The position numbers and the translations under genes were made by a program. From a virus (taxonomy: Duplodnaviria > Caudoviricetes), in IMG/VR virus record IMGVR_UViG_3300037502_001229, positions 1 through 36,262 of that record: DNA of 36,262 nt. One strand, written 5' to 3'. The notes below the pieces were generated by a model. That model was not told where the DNA came from and did not search any database. It saw nothing but the letters and a program-made list of their open reading frames with translations. Shown here piece by piece: positions 1 through 36,262 of the stretch. The stretch's first letter is position 1. The number at the start of each line of letters is the position of its first letter.

Positions 1-79
1 CCATGTCCCAGCCCTTTTGTCTCTCGGCCATCGTGCGGTTGCCGATGTGGTCACATCTCTCTGCGTGATCCATCTGAAC
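1..79. repeat. Terminal direct repeat (assembly overlap), copy 1
   Basis: 1-79 is identical to 36184-36262, indicating a circular or circularly permuted complete genome. Confidence 0.95.
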
Positions 80-505
80 TCGAATCATGCCGTCAATCAG
101 CTCTATTTCACGGGCAGTCCACGCCACCGGCTCCTGCACAGGTGCTGGCTGTGCGGGTGGGGTGGTGTAGAGAGGCTGGGCCGTGGGGCTGCGCGGCTGT
201 TGGTGAACTAACTGCCATTCGCCGCCCTCACGTTTCCAGCGCCACGCCACCGGCTCCTGCACAGGTGCTGCGGGTGGGGTGGTGTAGAGCAATGTGCCCG
301 ACTCTGGCGGTTCATCAGTCCACACAACTTCGTCACCCTCAAAACAAACTCTGCCCACAGGCTCCTGCACAGGTGCTGCAAGGGCTTGCTTGATGACGTT
401 GATGGCTTGGTCTTCAATTGCAGCCTGATCGGGATCAATGACCGGATTTGTTGTGTTGCCTTCCAACGCCTCCAGCGCCAGTTTCAATGCTTCGTCTTTA
501 TCCAT
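1..505 (-). CDS. 5' part of origin-spanning mosaic protein (244 aa; join 505..1, 36183..35954), Eaa/Ead-like with repeated LYTTPPA(QP)APVQEPVAW linkers
   Basis: ATG at 505 overlaps the stop of the upstream gene. MDKDEALKLALEALE... stays open through the origin and continues in frame into ORF 35954..36256. Missed by the ORF track because of the wrap. Confidence 0.85.
   Translation of the reverse strand, partial: MDKDEALKLALEALEGNTTNPVIDPDQAAIEDQAINVIKQALAAPVQEPVGRVCFEGDEVVWTDEPPESGTLLYTTPPAAPVQEPVAWRWKREGGEWQLVHQQPRSPTAQPLYTTPPAQPAPVQEPVAWTAREIELIDGMIRVQMDHAERCDHIGNRTMAERQKGWDM
119..379. repeat. In-frame direct repeats at 119-172, 242-289 and 355-379, core GGCTCCTGCACAGGTGCTG
   Basis: Read directly from the sequence. 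Further copies at 778-801, 36046-36061 and (degenerate) 36112-36153. Confidence 0.9.
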
Positions 506-911
506 TGTTCTTGCTCCTTAATTTGGCTTCGATGGCGTCAAACGTAGGCTTGCCAATAATCATTTCGCAGTAGTCCTCAATGTCGTTGCGCTCTTGTTCC
601 GTCAGCCCAACCCATTGCCGCTGTGCTTTCAACTGTGCGACCTCACGCCGCGACTCAGCCAGCTCCTCTCTAAGGATTTGCATTTGACAATCGGCGGCTC
701 TGAGTTCAGCACCATACTCCACAAGCGTTGAAATGACCTGATCCGAAATTTCACGATATTCTTCATCTGTCCACCTTACAGGCTTCTGCACAGGTGCTGG
801 CGTTGCCTTACATTTAGCACAGTCATGGTTGACACATCCCAAGGGTTGTTTCGGAATACACCCATGTTTGGTGCAGTGCGCCACGGTTTCGCATTCGTCG
901 CAAATAATCAT
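498..911 (-). CDS. Mosaic hypothetical protein: Cys-rich N-terminus, PAPVQKPV linker, C-terminal WVGLT...IEAKLRSKN module
   Basis: ORF with RBS GAGGAG; carries the same DNA repeat as its neighbour. Confidence 0.75.
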   Translation of the reverse strand: MIICDECETVAHCTKHGCIPKQPLGCVNHDCAKCKATPAPVQKPVRWTDEEYREISDQVISTLVEYGAELRAADCQMQILREELAESRREVAQLKAQRQWVGLTEQERNDIEDYCEMIIGKPTFDAIEAKLRSKNNG

Positions 912-3330: not shown

Positions 3331-3615
3331 TCAGTTTCCTTTCAGTTTGTATATACGAATTACCCTTGCATGTGCTTTTGGGTGGGTTGCTTGCGTGTAG
3401 CCAACAGCCTGGAAGTCATCACCCCGAAAGATGGCCCCCCATACGTTTGGGCTAAAGTGCTCTGGTAGTTCGATTTGTTCACGAACATCATTGATCGTTA
3501 CAAATCCATGTTTTTGTGCATAGCGAATTGCTGCTTTTCTGGCTTTCTCAATCCATTCCTCGCGGCCAATGGACACAAGGGCAATTCCAGCATCACGAAG
3601 TTTTCGGCCGTTCAT
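3331..3615 (-). CDS. Hypothetical protein (possible winged-helix)
   Basis: 94-aa ORF, coupled to neighbours. Confidence 0.7.
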   Translation of the reverse strand: MNGRKLRDAGIALVSIGREEWIEKARKAAIRYAQKHGFVTINDVREQIELPEHFSPNVWGAIFRGDDFQAVGYTQATHPKAHARVIRIYKLKGN

Positions 3616-3896
3616 GCTTTCCTCGCTTTCAGCATGGCATCGGCCTCAATGTAACGAAGCACCGATCGACAATCAGCCCAAAATTCAGCAAACCCTTTTG
3701 GGTCTTCAATGTATATGGGGCATTCCCTACCCACCAATTGTTTTGCGTGGGCCAAGGAAACATCAAAGATTTCATTTGGCGCCTTGGCTGCAAAGTAGTC
3801 GCGCAGGGTCATGCCGCCCACCGCCAGCATTTGCCCATAACCCGCATGGTGCTCAAAGGCCGGAAACGCTGGCCCACCTGTGTTTGTATTGCTCAT
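3612..3896 (-). CDS. Conserved phage protein (GGPAFP...GMTLRDYFAAKA family)
   Basis: Motif typical of early-region proteins of proteobacterial phages; RBS AAGGAG. Confidence 0.8.
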   Translation of the reverse strand: MSNTNTGGPAFPAFEHHAGYGQMLAVGGMTLRDYFAAKAPNEIFDVSLAHAKQLVGRECPIYIEDPKGFAEFWADCRSVLRYIEADAMLKARKA

Positions 3897-3905
3897 AGTT
3901 GCTCC

Positions 3906-4415
3906 TTATTTAATGGTTAATGAGTGAGTACGAACGATCTTGCATCCTGGTACATCTTGACCAGACTTGAGCGCGGTTTTAATCAGCGTCTTGTTTGGTT
4001 TTGGATCTGGCATCTTTGGCCATGTCATGAAGACCGATGGAATTAGCTTTTCTTCAAAAACTTCAACCGATTCGGGATTGTTCCGAATCTTGATTGACAT
4101 GAGTGGATGGTCAATTGACTCAATTTGTGCGGCCATCATGTTGTTCAAAAGATAGTCGCGCAGCTTGTCGGCTGTGTTTTGGCGGCTTGTTTTAAGAGCC
4201 TTCAGGCGCTCAATCTCTGAATCAATAGCATCACAGTGCGCGTCAAATTGACGGGCGATCATGACCACTGATACTGCCTTCTCGTTGAAGGATTCGACAA
4301 CACCAGTTGACTCAATTGTGTCGGCCAGTGTTTGCGCGTCTAAATCCATGTCGGCTAACTTGGTCATTAGCTCGACATACTCTGTGCGAAGTTGGTAGAG
4401 GGCTGGCAATGTCAT
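3906..4415 (-). CDS. Siphovirus Gp157 (Gam-like) family protein
   Basis: Coiled coil, EIERLKALK, IRNNPESV, KTLIKTALKSG.DVPG; adjacent to ERF. Confidence 0.85.
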   Translation of the reverse strand: MTLPALYQLRTEYVELMTKLADMDLDAQTLADTIESTGVVESFNEKAVSVVMIARQFDAHCDAIDSEIERLKALKTSRQNTADKLRDYLLNNMMAAQIESIDHPLMSIKIRNNPESVEVFEEKLIPSVFMTWPKMPDPKPNKTLIKTALKSGQDVPGCKIVRTHSLTIK

Positions 4416-5041
4416 GCTGTCACCTTTTCTGCTTTCTTAGTCAACATCTTTTTAACGTGTATGTATGCCACGTTAGGAATCATTGAAACGTCAGCGCAGT
4501 TTGTATTTGTGTTCTTTGACACCCAATTCAAAAGCCCTGCACGGTCTGACTTGGTTGATTCGATCAGTTCATCAATCTCGATTGCTTGTTCTGCTGAGAT
4601 CGTTGGCGGCATGACTTCATGAGTTTGGTAATCTGCATCATCACGCGACTCGGTTGGAATGCTGAACGCCTGGAAACAAGCGTATTTATAAGCCGCTGAC
4701 ATGGCTTTGTTTGTTGCTTTGTCTCCACTGTCCATTGCCTCGCCAAACGTCTTTACAGTGTGTTTTGTGCCATCCTCGGACGACACAAAATCAAACTCAG
4801 CCTCGACCGTGATGTAGAACAACGCGCCGCCGTTTTTAGACTGGCGCTCGACACATTCACGGGCCAAAACACGGGGCAAGATGCACAGGCCATGCTTTGC
4901 CAACAATGGGGCAATGGCGTTGTAAACGTCATCAATGCCCCGGAAGTTGTAACCCGCGCCCTGTGAATTTCGTTTGTCTTTGACGATCCCAATGGTTGCC
5001 AGTTCAGCTTGAACTGCGTTGATTGCTTTGTAGACTTGCAT
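4412..5041 (-). CDS. erf: ERF-family ssDNA-annealing recombinase
   Basis: YNFRGIDDV, GEAMDSGDKATNKAMSAAYKYA...F.IPT..DDAD ERF signature. Confidence 0.9.
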   Translation of the reverse strand: MQVYKAINAVQAELATIGIVKDKRNSQGAGYNFRGIDDVYNAIAPLLAKHGLCILPRVLARECVERQSKNGGALFYITVEAEFDFVSSEDGTKHTVKTFGEAMDSGDKATNKAMSAAYKYACFQAFSIPTESRDDADYQTHEVMPPTISAEQAIEIDELIESTKSDRAGLLNWVSKNTNTNCADVSMIPNVAYIHVKKMLTKKAEKVTA

Positions 5042-5514: not shown

Positions 5515-6363
5515 ATGAAGCATTACCCTCACCACATAGGTGACTTCGACAGGGCAACGAGACACCTAACACGCATAGAACGCAGCATTTACCGCGACTT
5601 GCTTGACCTCTATTACGACACCGAAAAGTCGTTAACGCTTGATCGTGAAACTCTTTGCCGCCGAATCCTTGCCCGTTCCAACGAGGAATCAACGGCCGTT
5701 GAACAGGTGTTGAGTGAGTTTTTCACGGAAACACCAACAGGTTGGTATCACGTTCGATGTGAGGCAGAAATTGAGGCCTACCGAAGCAACACAAGCCAAA
5801 AGGCTATGGCTGGCAAGGCCTCAGCAGAGGCAAAACGCCTTAAAAAGCTGCAAGCGTTAAACGGCAAATCAACAGCCGTTGAACAGCCGTTGAAATCCGT
5901 TGCAACAAACGGCAACGGCACTTTAACTAACCATCAACCATCAACCATCAACCAAGAACCAATAACCAAGAAAGAGAAGAAAGGCGCAAGCGCCGAGATT
6001 GTTTTTCCAGAAGGCTTAGACCAAACGGCTTGGACTCGGTGGGTTGATTACAGAAAGCAGTCAGGCAAAGCATTGAGACCCGTATCCTGGCAGAGCGCAA
6101 TTGACGCACTTGTTAAACATGGCCCCAATCAAATGGCGGTGGTTGAACAATCAATTGCTAACGGGTGGCAAGGGTTGTTTGCGCTGAAGAAGGATGGCAA
6201 CAAACAAAACCAATCAATGACTTTTGCCGAACGTGACGCAGCCGCTGGACGCAAACGATGGGAAGAAATGACGGGCCGAAAGTGGCCTGAAAACGAAACT
6301 TGGATTGACATCGAAACTTTTACTTTGGGGATTGAACATGACACTACCGATCAAAGCAATTGA
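5515..6363 (+). CDS. Replication initiator (YdaU/DUF1376 N-terminus, lambda O-like)
   Basis: MKHYPHHIGDF..T.HL..IE..IYR.LLD.YY; C-terminal QSIANGWQGLF; internal iterons. Confidence 0.85.
   Translation: MKHYPHHIGDFDRATRHLTRIERSIYRDLLDLYYDTEKSLTLDRETLCRRILARSNEESTAVEQVLSEFFTETPTGWYHVRCEAEIEAYRSNTSQKAMAGKASAEAKRLKKLQALNGKSTAVEQPLKSVATNGNGTLTNHQPSTINQEPITKKEKKGASAEIVFPEGLDQTAWTRWVDYRKQSGKALRPVSWQSAIDALVKHGPNQMAVVEQSIANGWQGLFALKKDGNKQNQSMTFAERDAAAGRKRWEEMTGRKWPENETWIDIETFTLGIEHDTTDQSN
5867..5970 (+). repeat. Putative replication origin iterons
   Basis: CCGTTG(A/C)A x3; AATCAAC(A/G)GCCGTTGAACAG also at 5687-5706; followed by an (ACCATCA)n-like tract. Confidence 0.7.
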
Positions 6364-8931: not shown

Positions 8932-9060
8932 GTGAAAACCCTATTCACAATCGCAGTTCTGTTCTTTTCTTTCGCAGTCCAAGCCCAAACCACAACCAGG
9001 TGTGTAAAGAATTGGGATGGAAGCTACACCTGCACCACCACTCGAAACGGTGGGTTTTGA
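8932..9060 (+). CDS. Small secreted peptide (42 aa; signal peptide plus 24-aa two-Cys mature part)
   Basis: RBS AAGGAG, GTG start; MKTLFTIAVLFFSFAVQA-QTTTRCVKNWDGSYTCTTTRNGGF; TGATG overlap with the next gene. Confidence 0.75.
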   Translation: MKTLFTIAVLFFSFAVQAQTTTRCVKNWDGSYTCTTTRNGGF

Positions 9061-10283
9061 TGGTTAACCCAGCGGATAAAGTGGAAAAGTGGGACATTAC
9101 CCGCCTCACGCCATACGCACGCAACAGCCGAACCCACTCTGACGAACAAATCAGCCAGCTGGCAGCCAGCATCAAGGAATGGGGATGGACAACACCAGTC
9201 CTGGTGGATGAGGACGGCAGCATCATTGCCGGCCACGGTCGTACCCTCGCAGCCCAACGCCTTAAGATGACCGAAGTTCCTGTCATGGTGGCCAAAGGCT
9301 GGAGCGATGCCAAGAAACGCGCCTACGTCATTGCTGACAACAAACTGGCCCTGAATGCAGGGTGGGACAATGAAATGCTGGCTTTGGAGTTCAGCGAGTT
9401 GCAGGGCATGGACTTTGACCTCGATCTGACTGGATTCACAGCCGATGAGATCGCGGCGCTGATGCCAGAGGAAATAGAACCGGGGCAAACTGACGAGGAT
9501 GCAGTGCCAGAAGTGCCAGCGCAGCCGGTAACTGTCCTGGGAGATGTGTGGCTTCTTGGCAAGCACCGGCTTATGTGCGGTCACTCGACCAGCATCGATG
9601 CAATTGAGAAACTGACAGAAAAACAATCCATTGACATGGTGTTCACTGACCCACCTTATGGTGTGGCTGTTGTCAAAGATGGCATGGTTGGCGCTGATTT
9701 TGGTGTTGCAAAAAAAGGCAATTACAAACCGATCATTGGTGATGAGACAACCGACACGGCAATCGAGGCATACAACGCATGTGTGTCCATTGGTGCAAAA
9801 AAGATCGTGCTGTGGGGTGGAAATTACTTTTCAAATAAGCTGCCACCATCATCATGTTGGCTCGTCTGGGATAAACGAGGCGACTCAGGAATCGTCAACA
9901 CATTTGCAGACTGCGAGCTGGCATGGACAAACATGACCAGTCCGGCCAGAGTTCACAAACAACTTTGGAACGGCATGATCAGGGAAGGTGAAAAAGATAA
10001 ACGAGTTCACCCTACACAGAAGCCAGTGGCATTGTGTGAATGGGGAATCACAAACTACACAGACAAAGACGCATCAATCCTTGATCTGTTTCTTGGCTCT
10101 GGCAGCACATTGATGGCATGTGAAAAAACGAATCGCAAATGCTTTGGCATGGAGATGTCCCCAGATTACTGCGATGTCATCGTCAAACGCTGGCAGGACT
10201 TCACTGGCAAAATCGCAGTTCACGCAGAAACTGGACAACCTTTCGCGGAGGTTAAAAATGACAAGCAAGAAACAGGCCACTGA
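9060..10283 (+). CDS. ParB-like N-domain fused to N6A/N4C DNA methyltransferase
   Basis: PYARNSRTH, IIAGHGR, IADNKL (ParB); TDPPYG, HPTQKP, LDLFLGSGST (beta-class MTase). Confidence 0.9.
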   Translation: MVNPADKVEKWDITRLTPYARNSRTHSDEQISQLAASIKEWGWTTPVLVDEDGSIIAGHGRTLAAQRLKMTEVPVMVAKGWSDAKKRAYVIADNKLALNAGWDNEMLALEFSELQGMDFDLDLTGFTADEIAALMPEEIEPGQTDEDAVPEVPAQPVTVLGDVWLLGKHRLMCGHSTSIDAIEKLTEKQSIDMVFTDPPYGVAVVKDGMVGADFGVAKKGNYKPIIGDETTDTAIEAYNACVSIGAKKIVLWGGNYFSNKLPPSSCWLVWDKRGDSGIVNTFADCELAWTNMTSPARVHKQLWNGMIREGEKDKRVHPTQKPVALCEWGITNYTDKDASILDLFLGSGSTLMACEKTNRKCFGMEMSPDYCDVIVKRWQDFTGKIAVHAETGQPFAEVKNDKQETGH

Positions 10284-17244: not shown

Positions 17245-17691
17245 ATGCAGGCATGGGACGCATGGGGTGGATCTTGGGGGTACTCATGGGGTAACTCATG
17301 GGGCTTCTTTGAACAACCCCAAGGCGGTGGCGGCCCAGGTAAGGCGAGCAAACGAAAGGGCTGGGCCAACGAACGTGCAGCTTTTGAACAATCCCTTGCC
17401 CTACGCCAAGCTCAGACCACGTTGCGTAAAACCAACAAACCCGAAGCCGTCAAACTGGCTCAGAAAATCAACGCCTATGAGATTGGAAACATTGACCTTG
17501 AGGCGCTGAGAATCGAAAACGCACAACTGCAAGCAAGACTCCAAATAAAACAAGAGTTTCAAACAGAAATGCAATCGGCACAAAAAGCAATTCAGGAATA
17601 TATTCAAGACGAACAAGATGCAATTGACGCATTGATGTTGAGTGTCGAGATGGATTCCGACTTGGTTTTGAAAGCAATGGGTGAACAATGA
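17245..17691 (+). CDS. Hypothetical protein with N-terminal WGxSWG repeats and coiled coil
   Basis: WDAWGGSWGYSWGNSWG; abuts the upstream stop. Confidence 0.75.
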   Translation: MQAWDAWGGSWGYSWGNSWGFFEQPQGGGGPGKASKRKGWANERAAFEQSLALRQAQTTLRKTNKPEAVKLAQKINAYEIGNIDLEALRIENAQLQARLQIKQEFQTEMQSAQKAIQEYIQDEQDAIDALMLSVEMDSDLVLKAMGEQ

Positions 17692-18662
17692 GCGACATTA
17701 CGAGGACAGCAAGAAGGCCAGGCCAAGATTTCATGCAGGCTACGCCGCGAGATCAAGGGATTGGTTACATCTCTGACTTACTCGCTGCCACTTATGGAGA
17801 AAGAGTCCCCGCGCCCATTCAATTTATAGCCAAAGCACTTGGCGCTGAAGCCATGAGCAAGACATTGGGCCGGATTGCATACGGCGAACCCCTGACAACC
17901 GGGGCTGGTGGTATTGGTGGTACATCCAGATTCAGACCAGAAGTCATTGAATCAGCCGCCATTGCAGCCCCAATGCTTGGGAAAGTGGCTCAAGCCACCA
18001 GAGGTATGCCAGTGGGCATGAGCATCAAGAATGTAAGCCCACCACAAGCAGAAGCCCTAAGACTAGCGCAACAACGTGCGGCACTACCTGTTGAAAAAGG
18101 AGGTTTAGGCTTGCCAGCAAACAATACGGCAGCTGAACGTGCGGCGGCTATGGGATTTGATACACCTTTGTATCATGGAACTGGCGCAGATATTGCAAAG
18201 TTTGATAAGAAATTTGACAAGTTAGACAGGGGGTTTTGGTTTGGAAATCAAGATGTTGCAAGCAAATTTGCAAATGCAAGCGCAGGAAATCCAAATGTAA
18301 TTCCTTCATTGGTTAGGTTAGAAAATCCTTATATCTATGATGCTTTAGACCCCAACAGGGCAAGTGGATTAAAAGAGATTTTTCAAAACGCTGGAAACGA
18401 AATTTATGATGGTGTAAAAATGGTCAATACAAATAGCCCTGCGGCTGTTGTTAAAAACGCAGATCAAATCCGTTCACGCTTTGCAGCTTTTGACCCATTC
18501 CGAAAGACAGCCGCAACAGCGGCCACGATGGGAGTAGCTGCACCTGATTTATTGGCTCAAGAAAGGCCGTCAGACATGCAACTTCAAGCCATGATGCTCA
18601 GAGATATGGGAACCGACCCAAACACCATTTATCAACAAACAGGCGTTTGGCTTGGCCAGTAA
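17688..18662 (+). CDS. Protein with ART-PolyVal-like (ADP-ribosyltransferase-fold) domain
   Basis: YHGT...F....GFWF....A..FA...V.P....ENP...YDG...QIRSRFAAFDP pattern. Confidence 0.6.
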   Translation: MSDITRTARRPGQDFMQATPRDQGIGYISDLLAATYGERVPAPIQFIAKALGAEAMSKTLGRIAYGEPLTTGAGGIGGTSRFRPEVIESAAIAAPMLGKVAQATRGMPVGMSIKNVSPPQAEALRLAQQRAALPVEKGGLGLPANNTAAERAAAMGFDTPLYHGTGADIAKFDKKFDKLDRGFWFGNQDVASKFANASAGNPNVIPSLVRLENPYIYDALDPNRASGLKEIFQNAGNEIYDGVKMVNTNSPAAVVKNADQIRSRFAAFDPFRKTAATAATMGVAAPDLLAQERPSDMQLQAMMLRDMGTDPNTIYQQTGVWLGQ

Positions 18663-35757: not shown

Positions 35758-35957
35758 ACAGCGCAGGCCACCAAAAAGGCTATCCAGAGCATCCCCAGGA
35801 TGCCCAGCACAAACCAGTACGCCACGCGTCTGAGCATGTACCGCCACACAGACTGCGGCAACATCTCAGGCCCGTGCAACTTCTTGCCGATCTTGGCCAC
35901 ACGTACAGGGCAGTTCCGGCCCTGATTGCAGTTTCCGTATTCGTCGCAGCAGTTCAT
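35748..35957 (-). CDS. Small membrane protein with Cys-rich N-terminus (CC...C.QGR.CP.R)
   Basis: RBS GGAGG, ATGA coupling; C-terminal TM; last gene of the leftward operon. Confidence 0.75.
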   Translation of the reverse strand: MNCCDEYGNCNQGRNCPVRVAKIGKKLHGPEMLPQSVWRYMLRRVAYWFVLGILGMLWIAFLVACAVYA

Positions 35958-36262
35958 GGTTTCCTCCAACTCAACATCAATTCCCGGCAATCGTTCCACC
36001 CTGCCTTGTACCCAGGGTGTTCGCTGTTGTCTGTGATCTTGTCGGGCACAGGTGCTGGCTGCTCGCCGTACATGATCCCGTTTCCAATGGCGTGCATCTC
36101 GTCCAGCGTTGCAGGCTGTTGCACCAGTGCTGGCGGTGCTGCGGGTGGGGTGGCTCTGACCTTCTGTAGCAAAGCAACGCGCTCCATGTCCCAGCCCTTT
36201 TGTCTCTCGGCCATCGTGCGGTTGCCGATGTGGTCACATCTCTCTGCGTGATCCATCTGAAC
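35954..36262 (-). CDS. 3' part of origin-spanning mosaic protein
   Basis: In frame with 505..1; ends with GWNDCRELML, reminiscent of Eaa-type C-terminal motifs. Confidence 0.85.
   Translation of the reverse strand, partial: VQMDHAERCDHIGNRTMAERQKGWDMERVALLQKVRATPPAAPPALVQQPATLDEMHAIGNGIMYGEQPAPVPDKITDNSEHPGYKAGWNDCRELMLSWRKP
36184..36262. repeat. Terminal direct repeat, copy 2
   Basis: Identical to 1-79. Confidence 0.95.

Follow-up and report, generated by a model that had tools for sequence, protein, structure and literature searches.

In-frame protein modules between conserved DNA joints in two early genes of a P22-like phage

Two adjacent early genes of a P22-like podophage, here termed gene A and gene B, consist of short protein modules in a row. 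Six kinds of DNA joint, which unrelated phages have in nearly identical form, connect the modules in frame. We think it probable that homologous recombination at these joints trades small domains from a common pool, and that the domains act early on the host. The repeat-spacer array that a first-pass annotation had reported in these genes is confirmed, and the interpretation offered there, recombination joints possibly used by the ERF of the same arm, is partly supported. The window, that is, the whole stretch of 36,262 nt under study, begins and ends with the same 79 nt (36184..36262 is identical to 1-79). Therefore, the contig is a circular genome of 36,183 nt, and gene B (244 aa) consequently spans the junction.

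The window encodes a P22-like portal, coat and stabilisation protein, as well as a terminase, NinG, a holin and an M15 peptidase. Its leftward arm contains ERF, Gp157, SSB and an Arc-like protein, and genes A and B come last, at the terminus of the arm, facing the lysis genes. A domain search of the window gave no PF00589 integrase, and a promoter scan was uninformative (3 found vs. 5.8 expected). Some other features may be recorded here: an ART-PolyVal ADP-ribosyltransferase domain (PF18760, E 5e-12) at 17688-18662 (plus strand), between the portal region and the coat gene; a ParB-N and N6/N4 DNA methylase fusion at 9060-10283 (plus strand), directly before the terminase genes; and a short iteron-like tandem repeat with a 7-nt period at 5924-5967, within the DUF1376 replication gene. 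As for the host, five of the seven genome-contig matches to the exact joint are phage-like contigs in Burkholderiaceae, Polaromonas, Rhodoferax and Dechloromonas bins, which suggests a freshwater betaproteobacterium; the other two (Nocardioides, Micrarchaeota) are chance contexts. The Polaromonas bin also holds a 385-aa member of the family (L241:1834-2991) with at least five B-type joints and with modules that also occur in the viral contigs L012 and L029.

Gene A (498..911; this and all array features below are on the minus strand) encodes a mosaic protein of 137 aa, with 284 homologues in which the same pieces are differently combined. A Cys-rich N-terminal module is followed by a B-type joint (777..801), a helical module, the recurrent joint D (597..617), a short spacer (537..596) replaced by other sequence in relatives, and joint E (about 501..536) at the gene end, which carries both a Shine-Dalgarno-like purine run (about 514-519) and the start of gene B.

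Codons 1-168 of gene B lie at 1..505, the start overlapping the end of gene A, and the 3' part (35954..36183) lies across the circular junction, which is bridged by contigs of runs X2, X3 and X4. Gene B has 972 homologues, and the recurrence of its modules was counted among the 120 of them that were listed. Joint 0 (467..490) supplies the first helix of a predicted N-terminal hairpin, and the 0-to-A spacer behind it (407..466) is found in 9 of these 120 with other downstream modules. Then follow a composite of the recurrent joints A and B (353..406, with A at 383-406), module m1 (290..354, 65 nt; 20 of 120), a composite C+B joint of 48 nt (242..289), module m2 (173..241, 69 nt; 5 of 120), a second C+B joint of 54 nt (119..172), and module m3, a predicted long helix (82 of 120) that occupies 1..118 and continues across the junction at 36155..36183. 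Beyond m3 lie joint C with a degenerate B (36112..36154), module m4 (36062..36111), a partial B joint (36046..36061) and a terminal module (35954..36045), part of which (35999-36025) is replaced in runs X3 and X9. The C+B composites and the partial B joint are copies of the DNA repeat. The terminal module carries a Gly-Trp-Asn-x-Cys-Arg motif, which is present in 12 of 189 array ORFs. Enterobacterial EaA-like proteins often have it as well (38 of 113 ORFs of the enterobacterial type).

The first-pass annotation had described six copies of one repeat on the minus strand, in frame with both genes, and had given 69 and 65 nt for the two shortest spacers; all of this was verified. The array is real, but the repeat is not uniform: its copies are composites of two half-joints, C and then B, and those at 355-379, 778-801 and 36046-36061 contain only the B half-joint, whole or partial. 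Joints 0, A, D and E are further types beyond those noted before. Exact shared runs among the repeat copies of the window are 8-29 nt, and 29 nt is also the longest exact repeat in the 1.14-kb A/B region, compared with maxima of 15 nt among 500 codon shuffles and 22 nt among 500 synonymous recodings of the same proteins. Across relatives the grammar is fixed: 0, spacer, A, B, spacer, C, then any extra B-spacer-C units, D, spacer and E. The spacers span 10-110 codons in frame, and within genes the spacing is nearly always in frame (B-C in 120 of 121 cases, D-E in 48 of 49, 0-A in 49 of 49), whereas from joint E into the next gene (E-B, E-E and E-A) it is so in only 3 of 19.

The joints are conserved as DNA. 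The exact 22-nt joint pattern matched about 300 viral stretches, 120 of which were retrieved. Since such a search is biased, a codon-blind scan with all synonymous spellings of the nine-codon joint B was used, from which 119 stretches of about 130 were retrieved. Even so, a single identical 27-mer occurs in 71 of the 102 matches with distinct downstream 30-mers, and the background use of each modal codon is 19-51%. The mean pairwise codon identity is 0.92 for joint B, 0.91-0.94 for C and 0.97 for A and E, with lower values for D (0.81-0.92) and joint 0 (0.73-0.81). As a control, five conserved holin peptides from 80 loci found by protein gave 0.35-0.46; among these holin-anchored relatives, only 6 of the 80 loci have any joint. 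Conservation at the protein level only, named beforehand as the outcome that would speak against the proposal, is thus not what we find. Kinship does not explain the identity either, since 24 carrier genomes (the window and 23 others picked for length and near-completeness) belong to many groups that have 0-4% of their DNA in common, at 33-99 kb and a GC content of 43-61%. Joint E also carries the ribosome-binding site of the next gene, which accounts for part of its conservation. Raised codon identity (0.64-0.82) is seen, too, in motifs of an adjacent gene family at carrier loci.

Could the joints stay identical because they serve as recombination sites that are folded or bound by a protein, with C+B forming a hairpin and B...C looping the module out, in single-stranded DNA or in mRNA, to direct exchange? 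Joints B and C do form an imperfect inverted repeat, codon-usage-weighted recodings rarely reach the folding stability of the window joints (fraction 0.001-0.022), the B-C duplex in three joint dialects is stabler than GC-matched recodings (64 of 65, 34 of 40 and 32 of 37 units), and synonymous positions in the stem mostly preserve pairing. However, with recodings matched for GC, the values are only 0.05 (RNA) and 0.08 (DNA) for the modal B-C duplex, itself one of 21 pairs tested, and 0.01-0.4 for the composite joints. Moreover, the units are not independent of one another, compensatory changes on both sides of the stem are not seen and one modal position breaks it, while joints 0, A, D and E are equally conserved and have no pairing partner. 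An integrase (PF00589) is present in only 5 of the 50 carrier records surveyed below and is missing from the window. We therefore regard a structured site as improbable, and prefer to see the joints as plain stretches of homology.

If the joints are exchange points, modules should be found in changing company, and this is the case. A set of 189 non-redundant ORFs yielded 446 modules with a length of 24 nt or more, which fall into 380 clusters, 331 of them singletons; the Chao1 estimate is about 620 modules for the B-C slot alone. Recurrent modules have changed neighbours in 70 of 84 comparisons, in line with the earlier expectation that the same spacers recur in other arrangements, and relatives vary in module order and number, so that the fixed order named as contrary evidence is not observed. 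Breakpoints also lie inside the repeat, as had been anticipated. With modules defined by the joints, homology ends inside a joint in 110 of 134 cases (40.6 expected). Because this version relied on joint-defined modules, the test was rerun with seeds outside the joints, and 339 of 651 breakpoints fell in joints, compared with 176 expected and a maximum of 218 in 20,000 simulations. The remaining 312 lie outside the six joint motifs, many of them at further conserved blocks.

The modules of the window itself provide examples. For instance, m3 is identical over 150 of 150 nt in phage G041, which has 1% of the genome in common with the window and no match to its terminase or portal, and the identity extends for 44 and 19 nt into the flanking joints and no further. 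Module m1 is 88% identical in L190, beside different neighbours. Conversely, three phages with terminases 96-98% identical to that of the window (G003, G006 and G021) have arrays at the same locus with other modules and other gene numbers. Another relative, P0140, is a fusion in which residues 1-47 of gene A (96%) are followed by one new module and by the last 52 matched residues of gene B (92%), including m4; the fusion point is the B-type joint of gene A. In public contigs from runs X2 and X4, the D-E spacer is the one part of gene A that is replaced, with both flanks aligned, and a contig of run X9 has a different module of 132 nt between two copies of the 36113-36153 joint. Run X1 is without cover at 301-350, which was not taken as absence. 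Apart from the array, the gene at 3612-3896 (minus strand) matches G041 at its two ends only. Other small early genes (3612-3896 and 1444-1722, both on the minus strand) look to be built likewise with different joints, and the joint grammar may extend over much of the early arm.

All this material consists of assembled contigs, and identical joints could have led an assembler to join different phages wrongly, so that the reshuffling would be a metagenome artefact. Short-word assemblies do break at joints, where the summed depth peaks, and several contigs end near a joint. Run X1 contains both continuations of m3, which means that two phages can co-occur and also that m3 is a shared assembly node. 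However, exact shared runs across joint B are short (99% are at most 45 nt, and 0.01% reach 79 nt, the length of the window overlap), and 9 of 234 flank pairs around joint B were found again in separate contigs. The m3-m4 link of the window is bridged in runs X2, X3 and X4, the GenBank phage DSL-LC05, which belongs to a sister dialect, has modules related to those of the catalogue in other orders and combinations, and the enterobacterial dialect follows the same grammar. Furthermore, mis-joining presupposes identical joints in unrelated phages, which is the very thing to be explained. An artefact is thus very unlikely, and recombination between phages remains the reading we follow.

Which enzyme could perform the exchange? 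The window encodes an ERF single-strand annealing protein (4412..5041, minus strand; PF04404, E 1e-23), which is a candidate for the recombinase but not a specific one, and the first-pass annotation had suggested a role for it. Its special role was not borne out by a survey of 50 records, namely 49 viral contigs selected from loci L001-L239, each 30 kb or longer, and one bacterial bin. ERF is present in 15 of the 49 viral contigs (13 of the 32 near-complete ones) and lacking in the bin, RecT and Rad52 are found in 0 of 49, an Enc34/Gp2.5-like protein in 5 and AAA_24, which we take to be Sak4-like, above the cut-off in 3, and none of these five annealing-protein families is detected in 26 of 49. 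The domain search gave no ERF match in G041, the phage with the identical m3, and the close relative G021 has an AAA_24 protein instead. An ERF-specific system is therefore rejected, other annealing proteins or none being found elsewhere. The ERF of the window is 85% identical over 157 aa to one (G025:71051-71623) from a 99-kb phage with about 1-3% common DNA, a sign of gene flow beyond the array.

From the sequences at hand, the best-supported inference for module exchange is general homologous recombination during co-infection. ERF works like Red-beta, and the minimal pairing lengths are 23-27 bp for Red-beta and 31-34 bp for RecA (PMC3945230). The exact runs across joint B, with a median of 20 nt and a 90th percentile of 31 nt, are near these minima, although half of them, at less than 20 nt, are below. 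Chi sites were considered and rejected: the joints hold 8-mers one or two letters off E. coli Chi, and the modal form of joint B has two mismatches. According to the accessible part of PMC8022716, Betaproteobacteria have no reliable Chi of the E. coli type. The crossover could be made by any general annealing protein of a co-infecting phage (ERF here, and elsewhere perhaps a Sak4-like or Gp2.5-like protein or host RecA), with no need of a dedicated recombinase, and would likely result in the swap, gain, deletion or fusion of modules. A joint would be copied together with its module at each exchange, which would homogenise its synonymous sites, and modules with consensus joints would presumably spread best.

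At the protein level, 38 module pairs gave a dN/dS of 0.13 and a dS of 0.27, which indicates that the modules are under purifying selection as protein and that synonymous change is less constrained in them than in the joints. In the predicted structure, residues 1-168 of gene B are beads on a string (pTM 0.30): a helical hairpin, m1 at low confidence, a beta-hairpin of m2 and the long helix of m3. The 43-residue m2 unit with its flanking joints was modelled with 52 aligned short B-C units, all different, and is predicted to form three strands (pLDDT 89.6, pTM 0.58), with strand 1 from joint B and strand 3 from joint C. Consequently, the earlier term "linkers" is only half right, as two of the three predicted strands of the mini-domain come from joints B and C. 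These joints would form its outer strands around a variable middle strand and loops, and the other slots are predicted to hold helices or zinc-ribbon-like pieces on a proline-rich tether. Neither model has a match at E<=0.001 in BFVD or PDB (best VIA Z 2.2), no sequence match was found in PDB, and Atlas matches are below 0.9 and unnamed. Like mini-domains are predicted in many proteobacterial phage proteins, including some labelled DUF551, MazZ or Ead/Ea22, all with E>0.01. Pfam names one of the 120 listed gene B homologues, by an RF-1 domain. In P0017, residues 102-167 are such an RF-1 (peptide release factor) domain, placed as a module between joints.

The modules might instead be mostly selfish or near-neutral cassettes between standard joints, with selection on the protein only against misfolding or toxicity. 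Database searches give the modules no known function, close relatives that are otherwise alike have no modules in common, and the model of gene B is beads on a string. However, the dN/dS of the modules and the almost invariable preservation of frame argue against it, as does the functional cargo of lambdoid counterparts, e.g., the dATP/dGTP pyrophosphohydrolase described in the portion of PMC10834534 available. We hold this to be improbable. The modules are likely to be small predicted domains acting on the host early in infection. The "effector library" of the first-pass annotation is putative, what is shown being purifying selection on the modules. The least certain part of this interpretation is that they serve as peptides for host interaction or counter-defence, with their diversity maintained by frequency-dependent selection.

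A relation to the lambdoid EaA/Ea22 proteins had been proposed, and it stands at the level of grammar and mini-domain, not at that of the named domains. The position is alike, beyond the recombination genes where the leftward early arm ends, as in the P22 layout: in the window, ERF, Gp157 and SSB lie upstream of the array on the same strand, and in G002, G008, G026 and G042 an integrase is directly beside it, as in the lambdoid exo-xis region. The build is alike too, with a helical N-terminus, a micro-module bounded by two strands (Val-Ala-Trp / Pro-Leu-Tyr) and swappable tails. The profile of the window-type mini-domain matches 76 of 121 enterobacterial-type loci collected by a degenerate scan (iE<0.01), 23 of them at <1e-5, and the best domain of P22 EaA itself has iE 1.1, at about residues 51-78 of the frame. 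Matches to phrog_60 are weak. However, DUF551 (PF04448), MazZ (PF04447) and Ead/Ea22 (PF13935) were not detected in genes A and B or in the 120 listed homologues, nor the DUF551 end motif in any of the 189 array ORFs, while PF04447 and PF04448 were both detected in P22 EaA as a positive control. Therefore, the window is not classed as a member of EaA/Ea22, despite the like working and the common mini-domain. The window-type arrays also differ in that a gene can hold as many as five tandem units and the joints are of six types, in the codon identity of these joints (0.92, compared with 0.57 for enterobacterial-type loci and 0.72 for a sister freshwater dialect), and in being carried mostly by integrase-less phages of many unrelated groups. 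In the available part of PMC10834534, Ea22 mosaicism, DUF551 as a portable domain and mosaic blocks are described, and DNA joints are not. The array represents an extreme, homogenised at the DNA level, both of lambdoid EaA/Ea22 mosaicism and of "boundary sequence" recombination.

Several other systems resemble the array in part. In T-even tail-fibre genes and in the PeSL cassettes of T4-type phages, conserved short motifs are exchange points between variable segments; those are receptor-binding fibres or promoter-bounded whole genes, unlike the cytoplasmic-type early mini-proteins here. Integrons are arrays of cassettes with attC sites and IntI, a dedicated tyrosine recombinase acting on a single-strand hairpin site. 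Integrons and CRISPR arrays share with the window the repeat-spacer look, a large spacer pool and a possible repeat hairpin. However, the window has no dedicated integrase, and its repeats and spacers are protein-coding and in frame, whereas CRISPR spacers are non-coding and uniform, not of 10-110 codons under protein-level selection. Diversity-generating retroelements, which have a reverse transcriptase with template and variable repeats, act by adenine-specific mutation, and here whole modules are replaced. Another parallel is boundary or linker mosaicism, with short conserved DNA at the junctions, about as long as the pairing minimum, and enriched breakpoints. Boundary sequences are a cited proposal that has rarely been confirmed and are not findable at most mosaic boundaries, according to the part of PMC3029335 available, and relaxed recombination has been attributed to Rad52-like proteins (PMC3945230). 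Here, such sequences lie inside genes and in frame, encode structural strands and delimit sub-gene modules of 30-330 nt from a pool of hundreds to thousands. No account of these DNA joints was found in the literature searched, which included few subscription papers, and the accessible part of PMC9836094 contains nothing relevant to the comparison.

A bolder reading, which we consider rather unlikely, is that the joints are a common "cloning standard" of unrelated freshwater betaproteobacterial phages, self-complementary signals selected for recombination, through which the entire community would shuffle thousands of mini-domains, all on a single three-stranded scaffold, as an antibody-like library of counter-defence binders. 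At the more modest level preferred here, the array makes it possible to measure what the old "boundary sequence" idea proposes, at sub-gene scale and among phages with almost no other DNA in common. Because they are built of modules shuffled at joints, these proteins escape Pfam and PHROGs; with the joints known, unexplained ea-type genes become a defined catalogue of modules of 20-50 residues, which are under purifying selection and can be synthesised and screened at low cost. If their targets are defence or regulatory proteins of the host, the modules would constitute a natural mini-binder library, and if it is defence proteins that they bind, the joints would provide a route for counter-defence functions between unrelated phages.
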